A DNA stretch of 64,000 nucleotides from Acidobacteriota bacterium (GTDB lineage Bacteria; Acidobacteriota; UBA6911; RPQK01; JAJDTT01): NCBI GenBank assembly GCA_965209055.1, contig OZ242374.1, forward strand, positions 2,720,001-2,784,000, written 5' to 3'. A program made the position numbers and the translations under genes. The first letter of the stretch is position 1. Each line of letters begins with the position of its first letter. Below the pieces are notes generated by a model that worked only from the letters and a program-made list of their open reading frames with translations, did no database searches and was not told the DNA's origin. Shown one piece after another: positions 9,271-21,914 of the stretch.

Positions 9271-11118
9271 ATGAGAATCGAACTGCCGTCCGCCACCGTG
9301 GAGAAAGCTCTGTCGGCACTGATGGTCCCGACCCTCAAACCCATGATGGGGTTGCTGTCGATTCCCAAGCCGCGACCGACACGGAAGGCCGGCATGGTGG
9401 AGTCCATCTTGCCCCGGCTGACTGGCAGGTCGTTGCGAGACCTGTGGAAGCGGCTCAACCGGACCCAGCAGTTGGCGGTGAAGGAAACGCTCTATGGTCT
9501 GGAGGGCCGATTCAACGCCCAACGGTTTCGCGCCAAGTACGGAGTGCTGCCGAGGGGTATCGACCGGGGCGAAACTGAGAAACCGACCCTGTTGCACTTG
9601 TTTCTCTACCCGCCGGACGGCGAACGGTATCGTCCCCCGACCACCATTCCCAGCGACCTCCGGAAGCAGCTCCGGGAGTTTGTTCCCGAGCCGGAGTTCC
9701 CGACCGTCGCCTCGGTGGAGGAAGCTCCGGATTTCGTCGATCGGCGCCGGAGCGGATTTGTTCCCAAGGGGCAGAAACCGAAGTTCGACAGAGTGCCCCT
9801 GAATTGCCGCAACATGGAGCAGGCTGCGGCGTACGACCTGCTTGCCGTGCTCCGCCTCATCGATGCCGGCAGGATCTCCGTCAGCAGGAAGACCCGGCGC
9901 GCGTCCGCGGTCTCCGTGCGGCGCGTCGCGGAGGTGCTTTACGACGGCGACTTTTACGACCCGACCGAGAAGAGGAAGCGGTGGACCCAGTTCGTCGGCC
10001 CCATCCGGTCCTTCGGCTGGCCCTGGTTGGTGCAGGCCGGCAAGCTGGCCCAGTTGCGCGGCTCCAAGCTGACGTTAACCAAGGCCGGACGCGCGGCCTT
10101 CACGGCTCTGCCCGCCGAGACCCTCCGCCGGACCTGGAAAGGCTGGCTGAAGAACACCCTGTTGGACGAGTTCAGCCGAGTGGAGGAGATCAAGGGGCAG
10201 ACCCGGGGCCGGGGCAAGCGGACGATGACCGCGCCGCGCAACCGCCGGCCCTGGGTCGACGAGGCGCTCGCGGAATGTCCGGTCGGCCGGTGGGTTCAGG
10301 TGGACGAGTTCTTTCGGTTTATGCAGGCGGCGGAACTGGACTTCAGCGTCACGCGGTATCCCTGGCACCTCTACCTCGGCGGGCCGGAGCACGGGAGCTT
10401 CGGGCTTGCCGGTGATCAGAGTTGGAACGCGCTCCAGGGGCGATATGTCCTGTGCCTGTTGTTCGAGTACGCGGCAACCCTGGGCTTGGTGGACGTGGCG
10501 TTCACCGACCCGCGCGGCGCGCGGCGCGACTACATTGACCTGTGGGGCGGCGATGATCTGGAGTTCCTCAGCCGGTACGATGGTCTGGAGTATTTTCGAC
10601 TCAATCCGCTCGGCGCCTATTGCCTCGATCAGGCCGACAGTTACGAGCCGGCCGCGCCTCCGGTCCGAACGGCGCTGACCCTGTTTACCGACCTTCGCGT
10701 GCAGTCGACGGCGCCGCTGCGGCCAGAAGAACGTGTGCTGCTGGAGACCTATGCCAAGACCGTGTCGGACGGCGTCTGGCGTCTGGATCTCTCTCGAGCC
10801 ATGTCGGCCGTGGAAAGCGGCCAGGATGTGGCGCAATTGAGGGAGTTTCTCACCGCGCGCGAAGATCAGCCCCTGCCGGACCGGGTGGAAGGGTTTTTCC
10901 GCCGTGTCGAGCAGGGATCGCGAGCCCTGACCGCGAAGGGACAGGCCCTGATCATCGAATGCGCGGACAAGGCGATCGCCGACCGTATCGTGGCCGATCC
11001 GCGGGCTACCAAGCACTGCATCCGTGCCGGCCCGCGCCGGCTCGTCGTTGCCACAAGATCCGAGGCGGCGTTTCGGAAGGCGGCGCATGCCTTGGGGTAC
11101 GCGTTTTCCGTACGGTGA
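9271..11118 (+). CDS. helicase-associated (XPB/Ssl2 N-terminal-like, Helicase_C_3) domain protein
   Basis: C-terminal 'VWRLDLSRAMSAVESG..LREFL....QPLP' and 'FRLNPLG'; no Walker motifs seen. Confidence 0.65.
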   Translation: MRIELPSATVEKALSALMVPTLKPMMGLLSIPKPRPTRKAGMVESILPRLTGRSLRDLWKRLNRTQQLAVKETLYGLEGRFNAQRFRAKYGVLPRGIDRGETEKPTLLHLFLYPPDGERYRPPTTIPSDLRKQLREFVPEPEFPTVASVEEAPDFVDRRRSGFVPKGQKPKFDRVPLNCRNMEQAAAYDLLAVLRLIDAGRISVSRKTRRASAVSVRRVAEVLYDGDFYDPTEKRKRWTQFVGPIRSFGWPWLVQAGKLAQLRGSKLTLTKAGRAAFTALPAETLRRTWKGWLKNTLLDEFSRVEEIKGQTRGRGKRTMTAPRNRRPWVDEALAECPVGRWVQVDEFFRFMQAAELDFSVTRYPWHLYLGGPEHGSFGLAGDQSWNALQGRYVLCLLFEYAATLGLVDVAFTDPRGARRDYIDLWGGDDLEFLSRYDGLEYFRLNPLGAYCLDQADSYEPAAPPVRTALTLFTDLRVQSTAPLRPEERVLLETYAKTVSDGVWRLDLSRAMSAVESGQDVAQLREFLTAREDQPLPDRVEGFFRRVEQGSRALTAKGQALIIECADKAIADRIVADPRATKHCIRAGPRRLVVATRSEAAFRKAAHALGYAFSVR

Positions 11119-11133
11119 CGGCTGCACCGGAGT

Positions 11134-11547
11134 TTATCTGAGCACTTCAAACGCGAACGTGCGGCCGCGACCGTAACGGTAAATTGCGAAATCGCTGTCG
11201 AAGGTGATCACACGGGAGATGCCGAGTCGCTCCATGAGCGCGAAGGAGGTGCGGTCGACCACGGAAAAGTCCTGGTCCGGAAACCGTTCTCCGATCGCCC
11301 ATGCGGCTTCAAGGTCAGCGCTGCTGGTCAGCTCGACCTTTGCCACTCCGCTTCTCAGGCCATCCCAGAAGGTTTCCGCCGCATTGGTGGAAATGAAATG
11401 GTGGATGAGGCGCCAGGTTTCAACCAGAACGTGGTCACTCGTGACGAGCGGTTCTTCCGTCGACAGCAGTCGCTTCGCACGGCCATTGTATAGATCGCTC
11501 CGATCGGCGGCCGCATACCAGGCTGAGCTGTCCACAAAGATACTCAT
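11134..11547 (-). CDS. vapC: VapC/PIN toxin
   Basis: 'IFVDSSAW', 'VLVET', 'FSVVDRTSFALM', 'TFDSDF'. Confidence 0.9.
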   Translation of the reverse strand: MSIFVDSSAWYAAADRSDLYNGRAKRLLSTEEPLVTSDHVLVETWRLIHHFISTNAAETFWDGLRSGVAKVELTSSADLEAAWAIGERFPDQDFSVVDRTSFALMERLGISRVITFDSDFAIYRYGRGRTFAFEVLR

Positions 11548-11804
11548 GACGAGTCAGCCCCTCGGCGTTTGCGCGCGGCAATCGCTGCCGCGATCATACG
11601 GGACTTTTCTGATGCGATGTCCGTCCGCCCGGAGGAGCCGAGATCGAAGACTTTGGATCGATCGGTATTCCTGGGGGGCTGGGACAAGTCCCGGTCCACC
11701 AACCGGCGTATGTATTCCGCAAGTGAGATGCCCAGATCGGCTGCCCTTACACGAACCATGGTGTGAACCTCGGAACTAAGAGAAATCTGCGTTCGAACCA
11801 TCAT
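11544..11804 (-). CDS. vapB: CopG/RHH antitoxin
   Basis: 'MVRTQISL', 'GISLAEYIRRLVD'; overlaps the vapC start. Confidence 0.85.
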   Translation of the reverse strand: MMVRTQISLSSEVHTMVRVRAADLGISLAEYIRRLVDRDLSQPPRNTDRSKVFDLGSSGRTDIASEKSRMIAAAIAARKRRGADSS

Positions 11805-11811
11805 TATAGTG

Positions 11812-11842
11812 ACATCATAACATCACCATAATGATGTATCAA
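11812..11842 (-). promoter_or_regulatory. vapBC promoter with operator palindrome
   Basis: Minus-strand TTGATA-N17-TATGAT. ACATCA-N6-TGATGT (11820-11837) lies in the spacer, with an extra ACATCA at 11812. Very short leader. Confidence 0.6.
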
Positions 11843-11940
11843 TCCGGGCTTTGCCGTCTGGGAAAAGCCCGAATTCCAATGGTCTGACATCGGCATCCCG
11901 CTTGTCTTGTCGGGTTGTGCACATACACTACAAACGAAAT

Positions 11941-12330
11941 ATGCAAGGAAAACGCGACCCGGATCCCAAAATGAACTTCCACCCCGGGCTGAGCTTCAGC
12001 CGGGACGAGTATTTGCGCCGGTACCGGCTGGTGATGGACGGAATCCGGAAGGCGGGCGTCGACGCCCTGCTGGTTCGGGGACCCGAGAACATCACCTACC
12101 TCACCGGCTACGAAACCCCCGGCTACTACGGTTACCACTGCCTGATCCTGGTTCCGGGAGAGTCTCCGGTCCTGGTCGGCCGGAGGTTGGAGGTCGGGAC
12201 CAACGTCCCCGAGTTCTCCTGGTTGACCGAGGTCGCTCCGGTGGAGGACGACGAGGTGCCGGTGGAGGTCACCATCCGGACTCTTTCCCGGATGGGCCTG
12301 GCGCGGAAGCGTCTGGGGATCGAATCGGAA
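11941..12330 (+). pseudogene. M24 (Xaa-Pro peptidase/creatinase/ectoine hydrolase-like) gene, 5' half, interrupted
   Basis: Creatinase_N-like 'FSRDEYLRR', 'PENITYLTGY'; homology stops at the element's left inverted repeat. Confidence 0.9.
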
Positions 12331-12388
12331 GGGGATTATATACTGAATTTGATAGCCCTTGACCCTGCCTCAGCGCTGAGATAGGGTG

Positions 12389-12481
12389 GAGAAAACGTGG
12401 CCCGCAACCGTCGCCTGTTCCTACGGGGAAACGCTCTATCCAGCGCAGGAGTTAACGTACATCGAGGCGCCACGTTTTCTC
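12389..12481 (-). ncRNA. putative structured RNA, family A copy 1
   Basis: 12-bp closing stem GAGAAAACGTGG/CCACGTTTTCTC; homologous to 19302-19394 with compensatory changes. Confidence 0.55.
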
Positions 12482-12530
12482 GCTTTGTCCCCTCCTATTT
12501 GACCGCAAGGGCCAAAATCCGATAGGGTGG

Positions 12531-12621
12531 GAAGGACGGGACAGGCTGCAACACGATTGACGACCCTGCCCCTTCCGTATTGGGGAGGCGAGATCGTACT
12601 CGAAACCTGTGCCCGTCCTTC
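12531..12621 (-). ncRNA. putative structured RNA (long imperfect hairpin)
   Basis: GAAGGACGGG/CCCGTCCTTC and ACAGG/CCTGT stems; inner mismatches are G-U pairs on the minus strand. Confidence 0.45.
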
Positions 12622-12625
12622 AAGC

Positions 12626-12716
12626 GACGGGGCGTGACATTCGAAACCCTGTCTGCCGACGTATCCAGCTCGTCGGCCCTATCCAGGGCAGAGTCGATAA
12701 ACACCGTAGCCCCGTC
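12626..12716 (-). ncRNA. putative structured RNA with two UGGAUA-containing loops
   Basis: GACGGGGC/GCCCCGTC closing stem; minus-strand hairpins GCCC-UGGAUA-GGGC and CCGACG-AGCUGGAUA-CGUCGG. Confidence 0.45.
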
Positions 12717-12727
12717 CCCTCAGGAAT

Positions 12728-12796
12728 GGGGAGCACAAACACCAAGGCTCACACTAACGCAATTAGGCTTGGAGCATCAGTCATTTAAGGCTCCCC
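12728..12796. ncRNA. putative structured RNA, family B copy 1
   Basis: GGGGAGC/GCTCCCC, CCAAG/CTTGG and CTAA/TTAG nested stems; near-identical copy at 14526-14595. Confidence 0.5.
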
Positions 12797-12958
12797 GTCC
12801 CTTCCCCGTGAGAACCTGAGCACGACCGAACCAGACCCCACACCTCGCGGGAACACTGGCGAGGACGACAATGACAACGACGAATCAGATTCTCACCACA
12901 GTTCTATAATACGCCCGCCACCTCAAACTTGTCACCCTTCCTCGCTATGCTACCGGAC

Positions 12959-13055
12959 GAAGGGGTCGGGGTGCCTCATGGTGAGGCTGCAGTATTACAC
13001 TCGAAGTCAATCTTGAGGGATAGGATTTCGTGACTTGATGGCCTCGACCCCCTTC
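12959..13055 (+). ncRNA. putative structured RNA or leader
   Basis: GAAGGGGTCGGGG/CCTCGACCCCCTTC closing stem, inner AAGTCA/TGACTT; lies downstream of TATAAT at 12905. Confidence 0.35.
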
Positions 13056-13064
13056 TGACTCGTC

Positions 13065-13268
13065 ATGCAAAAGGTCTACGACGAATCGGTCGGTTCGATG
13101 AGTGGGGAGAGATGCGACGTGCCGGGCCGTTATGAGTCGTGCTGTGCTCACCGGGAAGTCAAGTTGATTCGTCGGGGAGAGTTGTTTCCGATCTGTCATC
13201 GTTGTCGTCGGTCGCTGTTCTGGCGTCTCATTCAGAGGATCGACGATGGTCAGCGCAGCGAGAGTTAA
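13065..13268 (+). CDS. small Cys-rich zinc-ribbon (YjzC-like) protein
   Basis: 'SGERCDVPGRYESCC....RRGELFPICHRC....WRLI'; start may be ATG 13098. Confidence 0.55.
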   Translation: MQKVYDESVGSMSGERCDVPGRYESCCAHREVKLIRRGELFPICHRCRRSLFWRLIQRIDDGQRSES

Positions 13269-13296
13269 AATTGAATTTACTAAGGAGAAGTTAAAC

Positions 13297-13506
13297 ATGA
13301 AGGAAAATCCTGTTCGTCAGTATATTATTGTTCATGACTATGACATTAAGACTCAAGTTATAGCGGATGATCTGACTTATATTACCGATGATAATGATAT
13401 GATGACAGTAACACTCAAATTGAAAGGTGAAACGGTAGGGCATTTTACTAATGTTAAGAATTGGGTCCGGCAAGACCTGACGACCAATGTAGAAGACGAT
13501 ACTTAG
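13297..13506 (+). CDS. small hypothetical protein (AT-rich)
   Basis: ATG after TAAGGAG; 69 codons. Confidence 0.55.
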   Translation: MKENPVRQYIIVHDYDIKTQVIADDLTYITDDNDMMTVTLKLKGETVGHFTNVKNWVRQDLTTNVEDDT

Positions 13507-13548
13507 TACTTGCCTTATCGTCCCTTGCTCAAATAGAATAAACGGCAA

Positions 13549-14109
13549 ATGATGAGCGAGGAATTTCACGAAGAGGATTTCCCTTCCATTGACGATGCTT
13601 ACAAGCTCGCTATGGAGTTCTACGCTTTCGCAATTCAACGGGCTGATGCACTAGACGCGAGAATTCAGTCTGTCATGTCCTTTTCTAGTGCAGTTACGTT
13701 TGCGCTTCCCTTAGCAATCCACAACCTCAGTTTGGACATAAATTCCAACTGGACCCTCGTCTTGGCCGCCTTGATTCTCATAGAGTTAGGTGTCTACTTG
13801 GCGGGCCGTTTCTTTGTGGGTTGGGGGAAATTGGAGGTACTGAGTCCTCTGAAGATTTACAATCAGCATCTACGAAAGGCCCCGGCCGAGTTCAAGAAGG
13901 ACATGATCTACTACGCCGGGCAGTCCTGGGACGAGAACAACCGAAAGATACTGACGCCACGCTGGCGACTAACAGTTACTCTTTCTTTGGTCTTGGCGAC
14001 GAAGGTACTGTTGTTCTTCGCGTGGGTGTTCTATCACTTCTCGTCTCCTCTGTCGGCCGGGGAGCCTGCGGAGGTGGCGGTGGTGGGGCTGAGTCTCCTT
14101 TTTTCATAG
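13549..14109 (+). CDS. hypothetical membrane protein (about 3 TM)
   Basis: N-terminal helix 'RADALDARI' followed by hydrophobic segments. Confidence 0.65.
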   Translation: MMSEEFHEEDFPSIDDAYKLAMEFYAFAIQRADALDARIQSVMSFSSAVTFALPLAIHNLSLDINSNWTLVLAALILIELGVYLAGRFFVGWGKLEVLSPLKIYNQHLRKAPAEFKKDMIYYAGQSWDENNRKILTPRWRLTVTLSLVLATKVLLFFAWVFYHFSSPLSAGEPAEVAVVGLSLLFS

Positions 14110-14161
14110 CGACAAACCTAGCAGACTTCTGAGTAGTACGCAAGACAGTCTCTTACTTCCC

Positions 14162-14416
14162 TCATTGCTTCTTGACCACCTCAAATCCGAGTCGTTTGAT
14201 CAGAGGAACAGCCTCGTCTGGCGAGAAGTCGCGAGGATGTAGGCTCACTCTAGGGGCGCGTTTTATGGCCTCCGTCACGACATATTTCAACGGGTAGAGC
14301 CTGCGGCCTGATTTGATCCACCAAGCCTTGGCACCACGTATACGGGGCCAGGGCTCGTCTATCGCCTTCAACGCCTTTTCTACGTGATTCCTCTCGATCC
14401 CATCGAATTTGGCCAT
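14162..14416 (-). CDS. small protein resembling the ScoMcrA-like N-terminal DNA-binding domain
   Basis: 'IERNHVEKALKAID', 'GRRLYPLKYVV', 'DFS..EA...KRLGFEV'; GAGGAG RBS. Confidence 0.55.
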   Translation of the reverse strand: MAKFDGIERNHVEKALKAIDEPWPRIRGAKAWWIKSGRRLYPLKYVVTEAIKRAPRVSLHPRDFSPDEAVPLIKRLGFEVVKKQ

Positions 14417-14525
14417 CTTCAGCTCCTCTCAATTGGTAAGGCTACGCAGACCTCCGGCTAAGTCCATTTTCGAATGCTCAAAAATTAGTCGGAGTTTCTG
14501 CTAAGGTGGGGGGTGAGAAGAAGAC

Positions 14526-14595
14526 GGGGAGTACAAAAACCAAGGCTCACACTAACCACAATTAGACATGGAGCATCAGTCATTTAAGGCTCCCC
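14526..14595. ncRNA. putative structured RNA, family B copy 2
   Basis: Matches 12728-12796, including GGAGCATCAGTCATTTAAGGCTCCCCG. Confidence 0.5.
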
Positions 14596-14736
14596 GCCTC
14601 TCAGAGAGCGCGCCCGATAACCATGCCAGCCCACAATCCAAAGCAAAGCTGGTGAGTGCTATTGAGGGGCGACGCCTCATCAACAACTTCATACTACGCC
14701 ACAGCACAACGAAAAAGCGACCCTTCGGCCATGGCC

Positions 14737-16029
14737 TCAAGGCTCTCGACAGGGACAATCTGACGGCGATACGACTTCAGATTCCCCGTTGTTGACTTCA
14801 ACCCAAGTACTCTCGTTCCCAACAAGATTCGGTTGGGCTGGGATCCTGCCGGTAAATCCTTCCTTACGTCTGTACCAGACATGATGGCGCCACCAGAGCG
14901 GAGTGTAAGAGACGTGCAATTCAACGCCCCGTTCCATGAGCGCATGGACGACAGACGCCGATTTTGCTTTGATAGTCTCCCCCGTCCAATCGCTACGGGA
15001 ATCCCGTTTGTAGTCGAGCTCGACGACCGCGACACAACCGAGTGGGCCTCCAGACTCGACATAATGCGTCTGGTGACTCATATAGTAGTCACTCTCTGAA
15101 TGAGAACCCACGGACATATCAGCAATATGCATGCCGTCTTCGACCCATGCGGGATTGCCATTCAGTTTTTGCTGAATGGCCATTTCCCAACCCTTCTCAG
15201 GTGTCGCTGGCGTGCCCCCGAAATAACAACCGTCGGTGCCATTGATCCCAGCTTTCAGACAAATGTCACGCCAATCGGCAGGAGGGCAGTTGCCTTCGCT
15301 AAGACTGGGCGGTCCGTCCCAGAATCGGGGCTCGGACGCCGCATGCCAACGGGCGTTCCCATGCTCAGGGGCAAACGCCTCGACGACTGCGACCTTATAT
15401 CCCCAGTGATGCTCGTCATCGTGCAGTTTGACCACCCATCGTCTGAACTGAGAGACGACCCGTTGTTGTCCATCTAATGGTGGAAGACTGCCCCCACGAA
15501 CGCCGAACAATGTCTCGACCTGGCCTATGAACCCGTAGAAGATTCTGGCGCAGTTCTCTGTCTTCACTACGTCATGGGGGGCAGCGATTGGCGCTTTCGT
15601 AGTCGTAACGTCTTCACACTCGACCTTTGTACGCCAGCCTCCCATGCCAGCTTGTACAACGTGTCTGCCAGGGTCCCAGGTCGTAACGAGTGGATCGGGG
15701 AATGGGATGTTTACAACCGCGAAAAAATGACCGTCGTCAGTACGCATGACACGCCACTGCTCGATCCCTGCGCAACGTTCCGTGCCATTCCTCAGAGTGC
15801 CAATCATGCCCTCCTCGAAGTAGTCGGGCAGTGCGAGAAAGCCCTCGCATTGGTACACGCCATGAGGCAACGGGCCGTAAGCCGTCTCGAAGGCAAACCC
15901 GTTTCCAATAAGACGATTGCCTTGCTGTTCCGTAGTCGTGGCGAGGGAAACGAACGATATGCCGGACGACTCACCCCCTATTCCCATCAATATCAGGAGC
16001 GAAATAAACGACACTCTCACGAATTTCAT
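14737..16029 (-). CDS. secreted Cys-rich hypothetical protein
   Basis: Signal-like 'MKFVRVSFISLLILMG'; GGAGG RBS; start overlaps the upstream stop. Confidence 0.7.
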   Translation of the reverse strand: MKFVRVSFISLLILMGIGGESSGISFVSLATTTEQQGNRLIGNGFAFETAYGPLPHGVYQCEGFLALPDYFEEGMIGTLRNGTERCAGIEQWRVMRTDDGHFFAVVNIPFPDPLVTTWDPGRHVVQAGMGGWRTKVECEDVTTTKAPIAAPHDVVKTENCARIFYGFIGQVETLFGVRGGSLPPLDGQQRVVSQFRRWVVKLHDDEHHWGYKVAVVEAFAPEHGNARWHAASEPRFWDGPPSLSEGNCPPADWRDICLKAGINGTDGCYFGGTPATPEKGWEMAIQQKLNGNPAWVEDGMHIADMSVGSHSESDYYMSHQTHYVESGGPLGCVAVVELDYKRDSRSDWTGETIKAKSASVVHALMERGVELHVSYTPLWWRHHVWYRRKEGFTGRIPAQPNLVGNESTWVEVNNGESEVVSPSDCPCREP

Positions 16030-16505
16030 TCCCTCCTCCACTCCAACTCGTCAACCTGAGTCTCTAGGTTATTGATTTGCGATTTCAAACGGCGCATTCG
16101 CGCTTGTAATATCGAATTCTGAGCGCGGAGAAACTGCGCCGACTCGAACCCCGTCAGGAACTCCCGGAATTGATAATGACGCACGTCTTTGCCTGAGAAG
16201 TACGCTTTGACTGTGCGTAGGGTGTTTGCAGAGACGGCAAGGGCCGAGCCGTAGGCAATTCCGATTTCCTTGTCGTCAGAATCGAGAATCGTGAAGACAA
16301 CGGCGACAAGCGGCTGATTCCGTCCCCAGCGCCCGTTCTTTATCGTTCCTGTGATCGTGATTCCCGATTCATGGCGTTCGGGTTGATGGGCAATCAACTC
16401 CAAGTGATTTGGGCCACGGAATCCGAGGAAGACAAGCAAAAAGACAACGCCAAATCCAACTACGCTCGCCGAGATGAAAAGTGAGTGTAGTTTCAGCTTC
16501 TTCAT
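16026..16505 (-). CDS. membrane-anchored FxLYD-like domain protein with C-terminal coiled coil
   Basis: N-terminal TM; 'ITGTIKN', 'VFTILDSDDKEIG'. Confidence 0.6.
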   Translation of the reverse strand: MKKLKLHSLFISASVVGFGVVFLLVFLGFRGPNHLELIAHQPERHESGITITGTIKNGRWGRNQPLVAVVFTILDSDDKEIGIAYGSALAVSANTLRTVKAYFSGKDVRHYQFREFLTGFESAQFLRAQNSILQARMRRLKSQINNLETQVDELEWRRE

Positions 16506-16555
16506 AGCGTCTCTTGAATAGGATTCGATTTTCTGGCAGGCTCAAAGAGTTGGGG

Positions 16556-16668
16556 GTGGGAAGAGGCCAGCCCCCCGAATTGTAACGGGACTGGCCGTAC
16601 CAGAACCCCCTTTCGTCCGGGCATCCGTAACGCTCGACGAATGGGGGCAGTCATTACCTGCTTCCCAC
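16556..16668 (-). ncRNA. putative multi-hairpin structured RNA
   Basis: GTGGGAAG/CTTCCCAC closing stem enclosing GGCCAG/CTGGCC and CCCCC/GGGGG hairpins; intergenic. Confidence 0.4.
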
Positions 16669-16704
16669 AATTGAAATTACGATACGCCACACACCTTGAT
16701 TTTG

Positions 16705-17718
16705 TCATCCTGTCGTCAACGCCAGTAACTCTCTGAGCAATTCGACCAACCGACGAAGGCGCTTGGCGTCCTCTTGATCCTGAGTGTCGGGAATCTGTGC
16801 GATGCCATCCTCTGACGGTCTGTGCGTCTCGAACCAGCCCTGAAACTCGCGAAATAGAGAGACCGTCGTCTCGCCACAAGACGTGACTGCCGAGTCCCAC
16901 GCTGTTTGAAACGTATTTTCCTGCGTGAGAAGTACGTCCTTGTAGAAATTCTCGCCACACCGCTCTTCAACGAAGACCAGGAACAGCCAAGGCTGCCGAT
17001 ACACGCCCCCGAATGAGACCATGGGCGTCGTGCCGACTCCCCAGCAACAGGCGTAGGACTGGGGACGCTCCCCGTCGATTTTGTCCAAGAGCAATTCGAA
17101 CATCTCGTCCCTGTCCGGGCTGTCTCTCCAGCCGTACAGTTCAGCGCCTCCATCTAAGAACCAACTTGGAAATTGGTACGATTGAATGGTCTGCCCCCAT
17201 CCCAGCCGATCCACCATGATTCTGTCCCTCAATGTGTACTGAAGATGGTGGAAGGTTTCGTGCACCACGTTTTTGGCAACGACCGAGTCTGTGTCTTGGG
17301 CCTGTCCAAGTGCTGTCGGCAGGGTGTCGTTAGTCTCAATATGCTCGGTGATCGAACCTGTCGCCGGAAGTCCGATCCACGGGGCGTTGCCGCTGTAATG
17401 AATGGCCTCTCCGATGAGCGCGGTCCACACCGCGCCTGTTTCGTGTCGAAACGTCTCCCCAACGGGTACCAGGTAGATATCGAGTTGCGGCAAAATAATG
17501 GCGTACTCGTCTTCGGCCACTTCGAAGGTGTAGTCGGCCCATTCATGGACGAGTTCGAGGTCGGCCTCATACCGGTCCCGATAGAAGATCGTGTAGGCGT
17601 GCTCGTCGCTTGACGACTCAGACCATCCATCATCGAGTGACGACTGTGAAAATCCTGGAGAGGCGACGAGAATCGAGAGAAAAAGGATGCAGGTCAGGCG
17701 CTGTGCGAATTGAGTCAT
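16705..17718 (-). CDS. secreted zinc metallopeptidase-like protein (HExxH)
   Basis: Signal peptide; 'VVHETFHHLQ' plus 'PSWFLDGGAE' (gluzincin-like, D at the usual E position). Confidence 0.7.
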   Translation of the reverse strand: MTQFAQRLTCILFLSILVASPGFSQSSLDDGWSESSSDEHAYTIFYRDRYEADLELVHEWADYTFEVAEDEYAIILPQLDIYLVPVGETFRHETGAVWTALIGEAIHYSGNAPWIGLPATGSITEHIETNDTLPTALGQAQDTDSVVAKNVVHETFHHLQYTLRDRIMVDRLGWGQTIQSYQFPSWFLDGGAELYGWRDSPDRDEMFELLLDKIDGERPQSYACCWGVGTTPMVSFGGVYRQPWLFLVFVEERCGENFYKDVLLTQENTFQTAWDSAVTSCGETTVSLFREFQGWFETHRPSEDGIAQIPDTQDQEDAKRLRRLVELLRELLALTTG

Positions 17719-17731
17719 GACAAATCCCCTC

Positions 17732-17760
17732 ATTGTGGTCGAGACGCGGGGGCTTGTCAA
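17732..17760 (-). promoter_or_regulatory. sigma70 promoter
   Basis: TTGACA-N17-CACAAT just upstream of the RBS and ATG 17718. Confidence 0.65.
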
Positions 17761-17768
17761 CGTGGAAT

Positions 17769-17800
17769 TTCTAATACGAAGTAATTCCTTCGTATTAGAA
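17769..17800. terminator. perfect 13-bp hairpin downstream of the tRNA cluster (terminator or operator)
   Basis: TTCTAATACGAAG-N6-CTTCGTATTAGAA; no clear U-tract. Confidence 0.4.
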
Positions 17801-17868
17801 TTCTCATGTGTTAGAATCTCCAACGATGCGCTCGGCTGATAGACTGTCGTACGTGATTGAAGAGAAGG

Positions 17869-17942
17869 CGGCCCCGGCCAGATTCGAACTGACGACCTCC
17901 GTGTTCGGCAAACCGGCGCTCTTTCCACTGAGCTACGGGGAC
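17869..17942 (-). tRNA. irregular tRNA, Arg-like body, apparent anticodon GCC (possibly a pseudogene)
   Basis: GTCCCCG TA GCTC AGTGGAAA GAGC G CCGGT TTGCCGA ACACGG AGGTC GTCAG TTCGAAT CTGGC CGGGGCC G. U2.C71 mismatch and one extra base in the anticodon arm. Confidence 0.7.
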
Positions 17943-17983
17943 CACCCCTATTCTATCACCGGTTGGGCGTAGAGTAAGAAAGG

Positions 17984-18069
17984 TGCCCGAGGCGGGATTC
18001 GAACCCGCAAACTCTTGGGGAGTCGCCGGTTTTCTAAACCGGAGCGTATACCAGTTCCGCCACTCGGGC
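17984..18069 (-). tRNA. type II tRNA, Leu-type body, anticodon AGA (Ser)
   Basis: GCCCGAG TG GCGG AACTGGTATA CGC T CCGGT TTAGAAA ACCGG [long variable arm] GCGGG TTCGAAT CCCGC CTCGGGC A. Acceptor, anticodon and T stems are perfect; CCA is not encoded. Confidence 0.9.
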
Positions 18070-18089
18070 ACTCGACAAGGAGTTTATGA

Positions 18090-18173
18090 TGCCCGAGGCG
18101 GGGATCGAACCCGCACGGCCATTCGGCCGGCAGATTTCTAGTCTGCTGTGTCTGCCGGTTTCACCACTCGGGC
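18090..18173 (-). tRNA. type II tRNA, Leu-type body, anticodon AGA (Ser)
   Basis: GCCCGAG TG GTG AAACCGGCAGA CAC A GCAGA CTAGAAA TCTGC CGGCCGAATGGCCGT GCGGG TTCGATC CCCGC CTCGGGC A. Stems are perfect; CCA is not encoded. Confidence 0.9.
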
Positions 18174-18186
18174 ATCTACTCCTGGG

Positions 18187-18195
18187 AGTCTAGCA
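18187..18195 (-). promoter_or_regulatory. extended -10 promoter for the tRNA cluster
   Basis: TGCTAGACT (TGn-TAGACT) ending 13 nt upstream of the first tRNA. Confidence 0.45.
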
Positions 18196-18283
18196 CATGC
18201 CGAAACCCGTTGCTCTTCCACCACTTCCGCCTGGAACGACGATGGAGGATATCGCCCGATCGTTGTTTCGGAAATCTACGGGA

Positions 18284-19279
18284 TCAGGACCTCGCGCCAG
18301 CGTCGAGCCCGTTATCGGCCGTCAAGTCTCGATACATGAGGCGACGTCCGACAACGGCCATAACGAGGAGTCTCATCTGATCGAGGGTGTCGAGATTACG
18401 GACGTTGTGCCGACTTGAGAACTCCCTCACGTACCGTTCCAAGTGCTTCGGACTCATCTTGTGGAAGGTCCCCGTGTAGGACCGTTTCAGCATGGACCAG
18501 AAGGACTCGATCCCGTTGGTGTGAGCCTGCCCCCGGACATACTCCCCGACCGAATGTCTGACTGCCTCATGGTCGGGCAGCTTGAGGTAGATTCGAGAGT
18601 CGTCTGTGTAAGACTTCGCCCCGGGCTTCACGTGCTCCATAATGAACCGGGACAAGGTTTCACTCGTCACGTTCGAGACTCTCGTTGCCCGGACCTGATT
18701 TGAGGCACGATCCTTGATGCCAACGACCGCCGTCTTGCCGGTCGCTCCCCGTCCGTGCAGTTTGTCACGTTGCTTCTTGTGCATGTTGCGGCGCTTCCCT
18801 CCCAGGTAGACCTCGTCGATTTCGACTGGTCCTGAGAAGGGATCGGGATCACCAGAAAACGCCTCACGGAGCCGATGGGCGAGATGCCACGCCGATTTTT
18901 GAGTGATTCCCAGGTCTCGGTGCAGCTTCATTGACGAGACGCCCTTGAGGCTCGTCATCCACAGATACATGGCGTATGCCCATTTACGGAGGGGTAGTCG
19001 GGAACTCTCCAGAACGGACCCGACTCGGACGGAGAAGTACTTTTTGCAGCCACGACAGCGGTAGGGTTGAGGCTTGCCCGACTTGACCACGTAGGTGTCG
19101 CAGTCTCCGCATCGGGGGCAGGGACGATCCTCGGATTCCTGGCCGGGCACAGCATCGGGCCAGCGGACCGTCTCGAACCACTCGACGGCGGCTTGCTCGT
19201 CGGGGAACAGTTCGGAGAGTTGTAGCAGTGTGATTCCCTTACGATGCGATTTTCCAGGGGCTTTCTTCTTTGTACTCAT
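18284..19279 (-). CDS. IS1595-family transposase
   Basis: Zn ribbon 'CPRCG...YRCRGC', HTH 'KGVSSMKLHRDLGITQKSAW', catalytic 'VEIDEVYLGG', 'YTDD', 'HTNGIESFWS'; intact. Confidence 0.97.
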   Translation of the reverse strand: MSTKKKAPGKSHRKGITLLQLSELFPDEQAAVEWFETVRWPDAVPGQESEDRPCPRCGDCDTYVVKSGKPQPYRCRGCKKYFSVRVGSVLESSRLPLRKWAYAMYLWMTSLKGVSSMKLHRDLGITQKSAWHLAHRLREAFSGDPDPFSGPVEIDEVYLGGKRRNMHKKQRDKLHGRGATGKTAVVGIKDRASNQVRATRVSNVTSETLSRFIMEHVKPGAKSYTDDSRIYLKLPDHEAVRHSVGEYVRGQAHTNGIESFWSMLKRSYTGTFHKMSPKHLERYVREFSSRHNVRNLDTLDQMRLLVMAVVGRRLMYRDLTADNGLDAGARS

Positions 19280-19301
19280 GACAGGAATTTGCTAAGGTGA
19301 G

Positions 19302-19394
19302 GAGAAGACGTGGGCCGCAACCGTCGCCCGTCTGGTTTCTTTCCAGCTGAGCTACAGACGGGAGTTAACGTAGATCGAGGCACCACGTCCTCTC
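19302..19394 (-). ncRNA. putative structured RNA, family A copy 2
   Basis: Shares CCGCAACCGTCGCC and GGAGTTAACGTA-ATCGAGGC with 12389-12481; different apical hairpin. Confidence 0.55.
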
Positions 19395-19432
19395 GATTCA
19401 TTGTACTCCAAAATGCGCTTGTGGTATAAGGA

Positions 19433-19640
19433 GAAACGGGAGGGCGTTCAATCCACCCTGCCCAGCCGCCCCGAGAGGGACGGCCCGGCGTGAGGGACAG
19501 GGTGAAACTTGGCGGCTCGCCGTTCAAGCCCTGGTCCTTGCTACGTGAACGTGCTCTACCACGGGGCCAGGGATCAAACTTGGCGCCCAGCCCTGTTCTG
19601 ACCAGACTGTCGAGGACTCTCGACTCGGGCCGGGACTGAA
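19433..19640 (-). ncRNA. stack of further imperfect hairpins upstream of the transposase
   Basis: AACGG/CCGTT with CACCCTG/CAGGGTG (about 19433-19525), CCCTGG/CCAGGG (about 19529-19572) and a GTCGAG/CTCGAC hairpin (about 19609-19624). Confidence 0.35.
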
Positions 19641-19730
19641 ATGCGAACTCCCTGTATTTTCCCGGAAGTCTTGCTGGAACGTCAACCCCTCACGATGCGA
19701 CTTTCCAGGGGCTATCTTCTTTTTCTTCAT
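19524..19730 (-). pseudogene. short ORF beginning with a duplicate of the transposase N-terminus
   Basis: MKKKKIAPGKSHREGLTF versus transposase MSTKKKAPGKSHRKGITL; similarity is lost after about 18 codons. Confidence 0.65.
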
Positions 19731-19748
19731 GACTTTCCTCACACCGGG

Positions 19749-19777
19749 AGTATACTAGGTTGTGAGGAAATTGTCAA
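19749..19777 (-). promoter_or_regulatory. inward sigma70 promoter overlapping the right TIR
   Basis: TTGACA-N17-TATACT, then GAGGAA and ATG 19730. Confidence 0.8.
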
Positions 19778-19803
19778 ATTCAGTATATAATCCCCAATCG
19801 GAA

Positions 19804-20604
19804 AGCTGGTTCCTGACGGTCAACGAGCACCAGGCCCTGGCCGGCGCGCTGCCTCATGCCACGCTGGTCGACTGCTCCAGCGTCATCGAGGAGGCGCGGA
19901 TGATCAAGTCGGCCGAGGAGGTGGATGTGATTCGCCAGGCGGTGGCCATCGCCGACCGGGCGTGTCTGGCTGGGATCCGGGCGACTCGACCGGGGACCAC
20001 CGAGGACCGGATCGCGGCGGCCGTCTACAAGGAATGGTGCGAGGCGGGAGCCGAGTACACCGGACTGCCCAACTTCATTGTTTCGGGGCCCCGGTCAGGC
20101 GCGTGCCATGCCACCTGGCGGGGCCGCCGGCTGGAGGACGACGACCACTGCTGCTTTGAAATCGCGGCCTCCAAGCATCGTTATTGCGGGGCCGTTTTCC
20201 GCATGGCCACGGTGGGCCGGGTGAATCCCCGGCTGCGCCGGCTTTCTGACGCGCAGAACCGGGCCATCCAGGAAGTGATCGACGCCATCCGGCCGGGGGC
20301 CGTTTCGGAAGAGGTGGACCAGGTCGGCCGGGACGTCATCGCCAAGGCGGGGTTCGGCAAGTGGCACGTGAGCCGGCTGGGCTATTCCATCGGCATCAAC
20401 TATCCCCCCGACTGGGGTGAGGGCCAGATCATCAGCATCCGGCAGGGGGAGAAGCGGCGCCTCCACGAGAACATGACCTTCCACCTGGTGGCCGGCGTCC
20501 TCATTCCCGGCGAGTTCGGCAGCGGGTCCAGCGCCTCGGTGCGCGTCACCGCCACCGGCTGCGAGGTGTTGACCTCGCTTCCACTCCAGCTTTACGAGAA
20601 CTGA
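19804..20604 (+). pseudogene. M24 peptidase-family gene, 3' half
   Basis: 'RMIKSAEE', 'HATW', 'GYSIGINYPPDWGE', 'ENMTFH'. Joins the 5' half in frame (..LGIESE|SWFLTV..) to give 396 aa. Confidence 0.9.
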
Positions 20605-20630
20605 CCGGGGACGGAAATCTACGGCCGCCG

Positions 20631-21914
20631 TCACCGGCTTCGAATGGTCTTGTCCGCGGGTTGGTACCGGTTGCCCAGGTTCCGCCACTCCAACTGTAAG
20701 AACTTGAAGGGTTCGTCTCCCAGCACCTTGTAGCCGTGCTTGGCGTAGCGGGGGCAGAAGATCACGTCCCCGGGGCCCACCTCCCGCTCGAATTCGCCGA
20801 CCTCCCAGATTGCCCGGCCCGAGACCACGATCTCCGCCTGCTCCATGTCGGGATGGTAGTGCACCGGCGTGTAGCCGCCCGGCTCGTACTGGACCAGGGC
20901 GATGATGGCGGCCTCCGAGTTCTTACCCGGAAGCACCAGCCCCACCTGGGAGATCCCGTAGTGGCCTCCCGCCCGCTCCGGGCTCAGCTTGATCAGGGGA
21001 GTCTGTTTCTCCGAGAGGACGTAGCCCACGGTCCGGGCCAGGACCAGATCGGTTGCGCCCTTCCCGTCCAGGTCGATGCCCCCATTGGGCCTCGCCCTCC
21101 AGTTGAAGTCGACCGTTTCGAATCCGAAGCGGAGCACACCGTCCAATCCGGGTCCCGCGTTGGCTACCAGGAGTTCTCCGTCCCGGGTGAACTCCAGTCC
21201 GCGGGGAACGCGGAGGCCGGGGTGGGCCAATGTCCCGTTGGCAATCAGCGCGCCGTCCTGAAGCCGAAGCCGGTGAATCGTGGGTTGGGACTCGTCGGAG
21301 ACGAAGACCTCTCCCCAGGGACTTACCGCGGCCGCCGTCAGCCGGCTGCCCGGCATGGCCAGTGCTTCCTTGGCCTCCAGGGCGCCCGCGTCGTCGCCGG
21401 AAAGCAGGTCGATCCGGTCCGCAGCCACTCCGAAAGCGGCGTAGTCCAGAACGAAGAGGTCCCGATAGCGGTCTCCGGTGGTCCCTTGCAGCCGGGCGAG
21501 ACGCTGACGGTCGCGGTAGTGACCCCCGCCGCTCTCGGAGTAGAGACGGCTGCCACTGCGGAAATTCTGCGCCGTATCGGTCTTCTCCAGCCGCCGGCCG
21601 GCGAGGTCGGAGGCCTGTCCCGGGTTGCCGTCGTACTTCGTCAGGCCGTGTGAACGGCGATACAGCAACCGGGCCGTGGGGCGCTTCTGTCCGTCGTAGG
21701 TGACCAGGATGTTGCCGTCCCGCATTTCCAGCGACTGCGCCGGAAAGACGCCGGGCAGGTCGCGTTCCCGGTAGGCTCGAACCTGCCGGGCGTTTCCTTC
21801 GTCGTCGATGTCGACCTCCAGGATGGCTTCCTCACCCTGGAGGACGAAGAGGCGGTTCTCGGCCCGGCCGGTCAGGGGAAAGAGCAGCAATAGGCAGACG
21901 AAGACACTTCGCAT
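20631..21914 (-). CDS. secreted beta-propeller-like protein with C-terminal cupin
   Basis: Signal peptide; cupin 'PVHYHPDMEQ..V.SG', 'GPGDVIFCP...HG'. Confidence 0.7.
   Translation of the reverse strand: MRSVFVCLLLLFPLTGRAENRLFVLQGEEAILEVDIDDEGNARQVRAYRERDLPGVFPAQSLEMRDGNILVTYDGQKRPTARLLYRRSHGLTKYDGNPGQASDLAGRRLEKTDTAQNFRSGSRLYSESGGGHYRDRQRLARLQGTTGDRYRDLFVLDYAAFGVAADRIDLLSGDDAGALEAKEALAMPGSRLTAAAVSPWGEVFVSDESQPTIHRLRLQDGALIANGTLAHPGLRVPRGLEFTRDGELLVANAGPGLDGVLRFGFETVDFNWRARPNGGIDLDGKGATDLVLARTVGYVLSEKQTPLIKLSPERAGGHYGISQVGLVLPGKNSEAAIIALVQYEPGGYTPVHYHPDMEQAEIVVSGRAIWEVGEFEREVGPGDVIFCPRYAKHGYKVLGDEPFKFLQLEWRNLGNRYQPADKTIRSR

Follow-up and report, generated by a model that had tools for sequence, protein, structure and literature searches.

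In a 64,000-nt window of contig OZ242374.1 from an Acidobacteriota bacterium (the window is the whole stretch of DNA analyzed here, and coordinates refer to it unless a genome or locus position is given), we identified an intact transposon of the IS1595 family of insertion sequences (IS) at 12331-19795 (7,465 bp), referred to below as the window element. It carries three transfer RNA (tRNA) genes, two of which combine the serine anticodon AGA with a leucine-type body. Judging from the anatomy of these two genes, we tentatively propose that the element is a mobile carrier of hybrid (missense) tRNAs, which would be charged with leucine and would read the serine codon UCU as leucine; we regard this as possible and somewhat short of an even chance. 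In nature, tRNAs that depart from the codon table have very seldom been found.

The three tRNA genes were called by both ARAGORN and Rfam; they lie on the transposase strand directly downstream of the transposase gene:

17867..17942, minus strand: class I tRNA(-like) gene, anticodon GCC, with a U2.C71 mismatch, an extra anticodon-stem base, G73 and no CCA; TAGAAT lies 8 nt upstream
17982..18069, minus strand: aga1, class II tRNA gene, anticodon AGA, leucine-type body, A73
18088..18174, minus strand: aga2, class II tRNA gene, anticodon AGA, leucine-type body, A73
18284..19279, minus strand: IS1595-family DDE transposase with zinc ribbon, 331 aa (Pfam)

With RF00005 scores of 47.8 bits for the GCC tRNA, 55.4 for aga1 and 51.3 for aga2, all three exceed the gathering score of 29 and are real, as had been proposed in a first-pass annotation of this DNA made from its letters. 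A host covariance model built from 20 host tRNAs scored the AGA pair at 41.5 and 40.6 bits, compared with a range of 28-45 for host class II tRNAs. Both members of the pair form complete canonical cloverleaves with U33, a purine at position 37 and normal T loops, and the window tRNAs align end to end with a 7/5 model. Anticodon AGA reads the serine codon UCU, and the two anticodon loops, UUAGAAA and CUAGAAA, have YUAGAAA in common. In the 68 ARAGORN calls for this genome, A34 otherwise occurs only in tRNA-Arg(ACG) and in a repeat artefact. The serine tRNA set of the host consists of GGA, UGA, CGA and GCU only, with no A34/U-specific member. While ARAGORN labels the AGA pair as tRNA-Ser, the bodies are not of serine type: the nearest tRNAs are host tRNA-Leu (69-72% identity), and A73, the D arm and the acceptor are all of leucine type, whereas host tRNA-Ser has G73 and a different D arm. 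Considered as bacterial tRNA-Leu, the pair has the expected body features and lacks a leucine anticodon (NAG or YAA). The tRNA identity rules applied here derive from E. coli knowledge and from body likeness.

The two paralogs are 70% identical to each other, and all 17 pairs of the acceptor, anticodon and T stems are retained. Three of the five anticodon-stem pairs are changed on both sides, with the anticodon itself unchanged, and this combination points to selection that maintains both the tRNA fold and this anticodon. CCA is encoded in none of the three window tRNAs; it is also missing from several canonical host tRNAs, and the host has a homolog of the CCA-adding enzyme (PF01743, 129 bits). 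A -10-like hexamer is located 8-14 nt upstream of each window tRNA gene. In the AGA pair, the acceptor helix is lengthened by pairing between leader and trailer, to 9 bp in aga1 and 10 bp in aga2.

Several other tRNA-related features were observed in the host genome (G000). A class I tRNA at G000:C1:1817273-1817345 (minus strand; 78 bits with the host model) combines the serine anticodon GCU with a T loop that is unusual; it is extra to the normal class II tRNA-Ser(GCU), and no IS1595-type end was found nearby. At G000:C1:4203080-4203190, four tandem hairpins of the form CGGCGG-YTTCTAR-CCGCCG are present in front of a gene, and on the opposite strand their loops read UUAGAAA/CUAGAAA, the same as the AGA anticodon loops, which may be chance. 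Six host copies of tRNA-Leu(UAA) were considered as possibly related to the window element and rejected, since three of them sit in ordinary integrative elements. These correspond to a 4.2-kb stretch found in three copies of 90-92% identity (L123 = G000:C1:2521900-2526700; near 477237; near 1991443); in all three, tRNA-Leu(UAA) lies next to a tyrosine integrase gene and an ArdC/zincin-like gene. Such tRNA-targeting integrative elements account for the six tRNA-Leu(UAA) genes.

The element that carries the AGA pair has exact ends and interrupts an identifiable gene:

11941..12330, plus strand: 5' part of an M24 peptidase gene, Creatinase_N (Pfam, in silico removal)
12323..12330, strand not applicable: left copy of the target site duplication (TSD), AATCGGAA
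12331..12352, plus strand: left terminal inverted repeat (TIR), 22 bp, perfect
19774..19795, minus strand: right TIR
19796..19803, strand not applicable: right copy of the TSD, AATCGGAA
19804..20604, plus strand: 3' part of the M24 peptidase gene (Pfam, in silico removal, congener orthologs)

The two copies of the TIR, GGGGATTATATACTGAATTTGA, match over 22 bp with 0 mismatches, and the two copies of the 8-bp TSD agree at 8 of 8 positions. No third copy of the TIR with up to three mismatches is present in the window, two matches were reached in 0 of 100 shuffles, and these two are the only copies in the 6.08-Mb genome. Pfam assigns the flanks to Creatinase_N and Peptidase_M24, the two halves of one gene, and cutting out 12331-19803 in silico yields a single open frame, a 396-aa open reading frame (ORF) starting with ATG at 11941. 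The perfect repeats, the duplication and the seamless M24 gene of the first-pass annotation were thus all reproduced. The transposase matches PF12762 at 134.6 bits (E 3.9e-39, cut-off 27), and its N-terminal zinc ribbon matches PF12760 at 28.8 bits (cut-off 25.4). With a DDE domain, a zinc ribbon, TIRs, an 8-bp TSD and an empty site, the element is a member of IS1595, and with seven cargo ORFs and three tRNA genes inside the TIRs it is a transporter IS (tIS), in agreement with the earlier proposal of an IS1595 element with passenger genes. The ends, GGGGATTAT, would fit the ISNwi1-type 'ggnnatTAT' of ISfinder, which makes ISNwi1 a candidate subgroup.

The insertion appears to be recent and polymorphic. 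In seven of eight congeners, the M24 ortholog is uninterrupted (399-406 aa, 94-97% protein identity), and from the eighth (G008, 90% complete, 670 contigs) only an M24 paralog was retrieved. The target octamer is present once at three aligned empty sites of congeners and differs at 1 or 2 bases in G004. The unpublished genome G016 serves as a basis for no conclusion drawn here. Four public runs, all from one sample that is possibly the source of the genome assembly, cover the stretch as contigs, and both element junctions are bridged by these contigs. The empty-site joint 12322->19796 was detected in three of the four runs at depths of 9, 13 and 6; in the same three runs, the depth of the element was 11, 45 and 21 and that of the flanks was ~20, 52-55 and 23-27. 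The joint here has a shorter side of just 22 letters, and one run has a second strain in the right flank. The depths of joint and element add up to approximately that of the flanks, which fits a population with coexisting filled and empty sites. Cells with and without the insertion therefore appear to coexist in the source sample, on evidence that is good but not final. The first-pass annotation had considered the insertion fresh and had suggested looking for reads across the junctions and the empty site; both the congeners and the source sample agree with it.

Sister elements provide a comparison for the tRNA cargo, and three further components of the window element are relevant to it:

14737..16041, minus strand: protein X, 434 aa, with an N-terminal signal-like segment; an orphan family accompanying the tRNAs
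12728..12802, plus strand: SL75 copy a, a stem-loop of ~75 nt, GGGGAGC...GCTCCCC; 79-83% identity with two G005 copies
14526..14601, plus strand: SL75 copy b

The design of TIRs with 8-bp duplications is also found in par1, par2, L025 and L026 of this genome. Of these, par1 (L023) is 4.8 kb long and has a transposase 57-58% identical to that of the window element. It has a class II tRNA with anticodon GAA, a class I tRNA-like gene just downstream of the transposase and, upstream of the transposase, a tRNA-like unit whose anticodon arm contains a 36-nt insert; a class II tRNA of par1 also gives a sub-threshold tRNA-Sec match (35.8 bits vs 47). The homolog of protein X in par1 has 538 aa and shows 24% identity over 405 aa (E 7e-25). 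Between the tRNAs and this gene (L023 2130-3120) is ~1 kb of non-coding DNA with repeated units such as GGGAGCCGGGTCAT[CT]GCAGACAAC.

A low-GC island in congener G005 contains a transposase 55% identical and an X homolog 31-35% identical to those of the window element, together with eight tRNA(-like) genes, four of them in tandem downstream of the transposase. The class II tRNAs of this island have anticodons GAA and CAG, those with CAG on a non-leucine body. The ends of the island were looked for and were not fixed. ORFs flanking it (G005:C1, L111 5272-6522 and 14958-16388) match the N-terminal (TIR/ThsB-like) and C-terminal parts of PDC-S60, and from these matches the island seems to have landed in a candidate defense gene.

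The GAA class II tRNAs of par1 and G005 are 70-75% identical, with compensatory changes noted by eye. The order of transposase, tRNA array and X on one strand is kept in the window element, par1 and G005. Related units of par1 and G005 have leader-trailer stems of 10-11 bp or the 36-nt anticodon-arm insert. Considering the three elements together, a -10-like hexamer (TAGAAT, TATAAT, TAGACT, TACGAT, TAAAAT or TAAACT) lies ~5-16 nt upstream of 11 of 13 irregular tRNA(-like) genes whose upstream DNA was inspected, and none is evident for one. SL75 is present in two copies in the window and two in G005, with 79-84% nucleotide identity, compared with 67% for the transposase gene and 31-35% amino acid identity for X between the same two elements. 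It was absent from all others of the 401 genomes of the phylum, bar one weak 27-nt match, and metagenome scans with protein X and with the SL75 core gave no match. On the strand opposite to the G005 copies of SL75 (L111 6520-6710), we observed a small GGAG-ATG ORF, at least 27 aa long, starting with MTD and largely hydrophobic, and a TATAAT box oriented toward the TAGAAT box of SL75; by eye, this arrangement resembles a type I toxin-antitoxin pair. In the window copies, a stop or a frameshift disrupts the corresponding antisense ORFs, and promoters were not clearly recognizable.

Of the 43 transposase matches in the genus, 30 were scanned together with flanks of 1.5 kb, and irregular tRNA arrays were found at three of these 30 loci (the window element, par1 and G005), with an ordinary tRNA near one more. 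A wider set comprised 80 loci with transposases 53-61% identical, from metagenome-assembled genomes (MAGs) that belong to several phyla and in many cases carry the label of a sponge or marine bin. Fifty of these loci have recognizable ends with at least 7 of 8 TSD positions matching and span 1.25-5.4 kb. The covariance model detected 18 tRNAs in the wider set, and at five of the 80 loci tRNAs lie in or against the element (L036, L063, L101, L082 and, weakly, L045). In the 50 bounded elements, ARAGORN found 2 tRNAs per 131 kb inside and 7 per 899 kb outside. Body and anticodon are often mismatched in the tRNA(-like) cargo of the five loci; for example, L063 (a Chloroflexota MAG) has a serine-type body, 72% identical to the host tRNA-Ser, with anticodon GAU. 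Class I tRNA-like genes of five elements are 66-73% identical to the GCC tRNA of the window and 59-73% among all five. They are each other's nearest matches, just slightly above their likeness to tRNA-Arg, and their anticodon arms differ or are disrupted. The check proposed in the first-pass annotation, whether sister elements also carry tRNAs, came out positive for par1 and the G005 island, while such cargo is no general feature of the clade.

Most of the window element by length is not RNA genes. Orphan protein genes make up ~55% (4,080 of 7,465 bp), the transposase 13%, tRNA genes 3.4% and other non-coding DNA ~28%, and the RNA-dominated cargo described in the first-pass annotation was therefore overstated. 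Other parts of that description agree with our results: GC content is mixed (39-60% within the element vs 63-70% in the flanks), about seven plausible cargo ORFs are present besides the transposase where 7-8 ORFs had been counted, and internal sigma70 promoters are supported by eight promoter-like sites vs 3.4 +/- 1.9 in shuffles. No such enrichment was seen for terminator-like sites (6 vs 6.7 in shuffles). In addition to protein X, the following were recorded:

13065..13268, plus strand: ORF p67, small and Cys-rich (CxxC-type), a candidate that overlaps a 117-aa ORF of the opposite strand; no family
13246..13506, plus strand: ORF p86, low-GC orphan
13549..14109, plus strand: ORF p186, predicted membrane orphan
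14162..14416, minus strand: ORF p84, orphan
16026..16505, minus strand: ORF p159, N-terminal membrane anchor, with a weak FxLYD-like match under the cut-off
16705..17718, minus strand: predicted exported protein of 337 aa with a HETFH (HExxH) motif, its start being the ATG behind GAGGGG; no family
17732..17760, minus strand: promoter-like site TTGACA-17-CACAAT, 5' of the HExxH gene
19749..19777, minus strand: promoter-like site TTGACA-17-TATACT, with the -35 within the right TIR

Among 5.8 billion clusters, p186 has no relative but itself and protein X has two matches; among 1.84 billion representatives, protein X has 16 matches at E <= 0.001, of which seven reach E <= 1e-30. A single relative, 47% identical, was found for the HExxH protein. 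The cargo proteins gave nothing above cut-off in Pfam, NCBIfam, PADLOC or PHROGs and no significant sequence match in PDB, and no aminoacyl-tRNA synthetase domain was found in the cargo ORFs.

Action of the window tRNAs on translation is plausible from their anatomy, and from it we infer their expression, charging and effect as follows. The AGA tRNAs would be transcribed from their own -10 boxes with almost no leader and trimmed, and the host enzyme would then add CCA. Leucyl-tRNA synthetase (LeuRS), blind to the anticodon, would charge them, and the leucine-charged tRNAs would to some extent insert leucine at UCU, a rare serine codon. LeuRS, SerRS and AlaRS are described in PMC11028032 as ignoring the anticodon, so that a leucine-type tRNA with AGA should carry leucine to UCU. 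A broader version, in which IS1595-type transposons are vehicles of a code-misreading device, with self-promoted hybrid tRNAs (a leucine body with the serine anticodon AGA here, serine-type bodies with Phe, Leu or Ile anticodons elsewhere) charged by anticodon-blind synthetases, chosen codons deliberately misread, and X and SL75 as parts, seems doubtful to us.

A number of observations weigh against leucine being delivered to UCU by the AGA pair. UCU accounts for 19 of 1,692 codons in the cargo (11.2 per 1000) vs 2.6 per 1000 in 380 host ORFs, and is thus 4.3-fold commoner in the cargo. All four TCT codons of the HExxH gene align with serine in its one relative, and at the six TCT codons of protein X the residues of homologs are 33 polar vs 3 hydrophobic. 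UCU in the cargo therefore stands for serine or polar residues, and the proteins of the element itself would be harmed most by a leucine-charged tRNA(AGA), which favors the view of the AGA pair as serine donors. In the par1 and G005 transposases, TTC/TTT codons are mostly in columns with Phe in 76-83 of 83 homologs, so that these genes use the standard code. The third tRNA (GCC) has a mismatch and a bulge, the 9-10-bp leader-trailer helices might hamper 5' and 3' processing, SerRS recognizes the long extra arm and might accept the AGA tRNAs, and tRNA cargo is rare in the wider clade. An altered code for the cargo, read by the element tRNAs alone, was also considered and rejected, because TTC/TTT is mostly at conserved Phe and TCT at serine or polar positions. 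In-frame TGA codons in multi-copy transposases of congeners turned out to be true stops read through by the search.

If SerRS does accept the AGA tRNAs via the long extra arm, they could simply supply extra UCU decoding for lower-GC cargo in a 66%-GC host. The excess of UCU in the cargo and its serine or polar positions would then be expected, as would the same anticodon in two paralogs and its placement in a host without an A34/U-specific serine tRNA. We nevertheless consider such a codon supply unlikely: the D arm, A73 and acceptor of the pair are those of tRNA-Leu, as are its nearest relatives, and capture or duplication of a tRNA-Ser would be a simpler route to the same end. It would also leave unexplained the class II tRNAs with GAA, with CAG on a non-leucine body and with GAU in sister elements.

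The element is also rich in structure. We counted 25 perfect stems of at least 8 bp (span <=140 nt) vs 10.6 +/- 3.8, with a maximum of 19, in 30 block shuffles; the first-pass annotation, which had noted about 12 hairpins, was right about this richness. Four tRNA-sized, stem-closed units (X-seg, U2, U3 and SL75 copy a) lie in a row in the 590-nt non-coding left end, and further units are found elsewhere:

12389..12481, minus strand (by better fold): X-seg copy 1, a 13-bp closing stem around 67 nt, z -3.6
12531..12621, strand not assigned: U2, tRNA-sized unit with a 10-bp closing stem; no significant tRNA score
12626..12716, strand not assigned: U3, tRNA-sized unit with an 8-bp closing stem; weak D/T-arm-like motifs on the minus strand
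17769..17800, strand not assigned: 13-bp perfect hairpin between the tRNA array and the HExxH gene
19301..19398, minus strand: X-seg copy 2, 22 nt upstream of the transposase start codon, z -4.5

X-seg copy 1 is a direct repeat of copy 2 (87-90%). X-seg, U2 and U3 were tried as tRNAs and rejected, their scores not being significant (5.3 bits for X-seg and a maximum of 7.3 bits, E 1.1, for U3); SL75 copy a likewise gave no significant tRNA match. Rfam gave no family but tRNA above threshold in 11000-21500 and in the sister loci.

Alternatively, the tRNA genes and the other tRNA-sized, stem-closed units may yield tRNA-shaped RNAs with a role outside translation, such as promoter and processing cassettes of the cargo operon downstream, decoys for tRNA-cutting toxins or defense nucleases, or regulators of the transposase. 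In favor of this are the element order kept in three elements and the structured X-seg of the transposase 5' untranslated region. Acceptor helices extended to 9-10 bp by leader-trailer pairing, the 10-11-bp stems or 36-nt insert of the par1 and G005 units, and the likeness of class I tRNA-like genes of five elements despite differing or disrupted anticodon arms would likewise fit, and most allo-tRNA(UAU) species are reported in PMC5389517 to be inactive in translation. The AGA pair itself looks otherwise. Its cloverleaves are complete, with U33, a purine at 37 and normal T loops, the part conserved between the paralogs is the anticodon, and a search for complementarity of at least 9 nt to the anticodon arms within the element found none except from tRNA to tRNA. 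A role outside translation is in our view unlikely.

The right end of the element shows traces of its past, namely the second copy of X-seg and a truncated second transposase start:

19687..19733, minus strand: remnant of a second transposase start, 87% identical to 19236-19282

The duplication of both suggests that two related copies once fused to give the present element. That the tRNAs are only hitch-hiking junk, decaying pieces of host tRNAs gained through recombination between element copies and without function, is very unlikely: the mosaic structure, the flawed GCC tRNA, the window copies of SL75 without the promoters seen in G005, the low tRNA scores of U2, U3 and X-seg and the rarity of tRNA cargo in the clade would all allow it, but compensatory changes preserve the stems of aga1 and aga2, par1 and G005 have both retained the GAA tRNA, SL75 is more similar between the window and G005 than the transposase gene or X, and -10-like hexamers precede 11 of 13 irregular units.

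Three further elements with ends of this kind are present in the genome. The 3.1-kb sister par2 (L024; G000:C1:6041911-6045045; TSD TTTCATTT), whose transposase is 54% identical to that of the window element, encodes a D12-class adenine methylase together with a NotI-like restriction nuclease, which amount to a restriction-modification pair on a mobile element. A 69-aa ORF of par2 belongs to a family of 60-71-aa proteins found in 9 of 54 related elements; no member of this family was detected in the window element at E 1e-4. L025 (G000:C1:6066986-6068373) is a 1.37-kb element with IS1595-like inverted ends and an 8-bp duplication and without a transposase; its sole gene encodes a secreted trypsin-like protease, and it is a non-autonomous cargo carrier. 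L026 (G000:C1:4815235-4815507) is a miniature element of 257 bp; its ends are related, and its 8-bp duplication is TACCCTTT.

If the AGA pair does deliver leucine to UCU, misreading could benefit the element, through addiction or the exclusion of rivals or phages, or it could benefit a stressed host. Transposon-spread tRNAs would then make mistranslation a transferable and selectable trait and not mere error, and the hybrid tRNAs would be ready-made parts for genetic-code engineering. Should they instead be plain serine tRNAs or inert, the finding shrinks to an unusually large cargo IS with orphan exported proteins. The element is well suited for testing, with its exact ends, apparent polymorphism, two diverged hybrid paralogs and sister elements.

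Cargo-carrying members of IS1595 are known as transporter IS (Siguier, Gagnevin and Chandler 2009, as cited in PMC3129680). The window element resembles them in its DDE transposase with zinc ribbon, its ends (GGGGATTAT), its 8-bp duplication and the passenger genes downstream of the transposase. Unlike them, it has tRNA genes with their own -10-like boxes and with mismatched body and anticodon, and at 7.5 kb it is longer than all 50 bounded relatives examined (1.25-5.4 kb). A literature search, which did not cover supplements, returned no description of mismatched-identity tRNA cargo in IS1595. The type of transposon is thus already known, and what appears to be new, no prior description having been found, is mismatched tRNA cargo on a bounded IS1595 element.

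The closest parallel to the tRNAs themselves may be the allo-tRNAs, serine-type tRNAs with many anticodons, for which 'polycistrons of irregular tRNAs' were reported in Acidobacteria (Mukai et al. 2017, PMC5389517; review PMC7609411). As in the allo-tRNAs described there, body and anticodon of the window tRNAs disagree, and reliance would be placed on anticodon-blind synthetases. In contrast, the allo-tRNAs of these accounts are of serine type with 8/4 or 9/3 structures and a tRNA-Sec-like D arm, whereas the window tRNAs are 7/5 and leucine-type, and on that description they fall outside the group; their helix extensions stem from leader-trailer pairing and not from a 12-bp acceptor branch. 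The carrier also differs from what those accounts describe, being a bounded and recently mobile transposon.

The window tRNAs can be compared with two further systems. Accessory tRNAs of phages, integrative and conjugative elements (ICEs) and islands are generally thought to supplement codons. The window element is like their carriers in being lower-GC mobile DNA with a tRNA for a codon used more than in the host, and unlike them in the mismatch of body and anticodon and in being a simple DDE transposon and not a phage or integrase island. The tRNAProA/ProRSx system of Streptomyces consists of a hybrid mistranslating tRNA with a dedicated synthetase. Like tRNAProA, the AGA tRNAs join an A34 anticodon belonging to one amino acid to a body typical of a different one; unlike tRNAProA/ProRSx, they are accompanied by cargo ORFs without a synthetase domain, and the LeuRS of the host would charge them.

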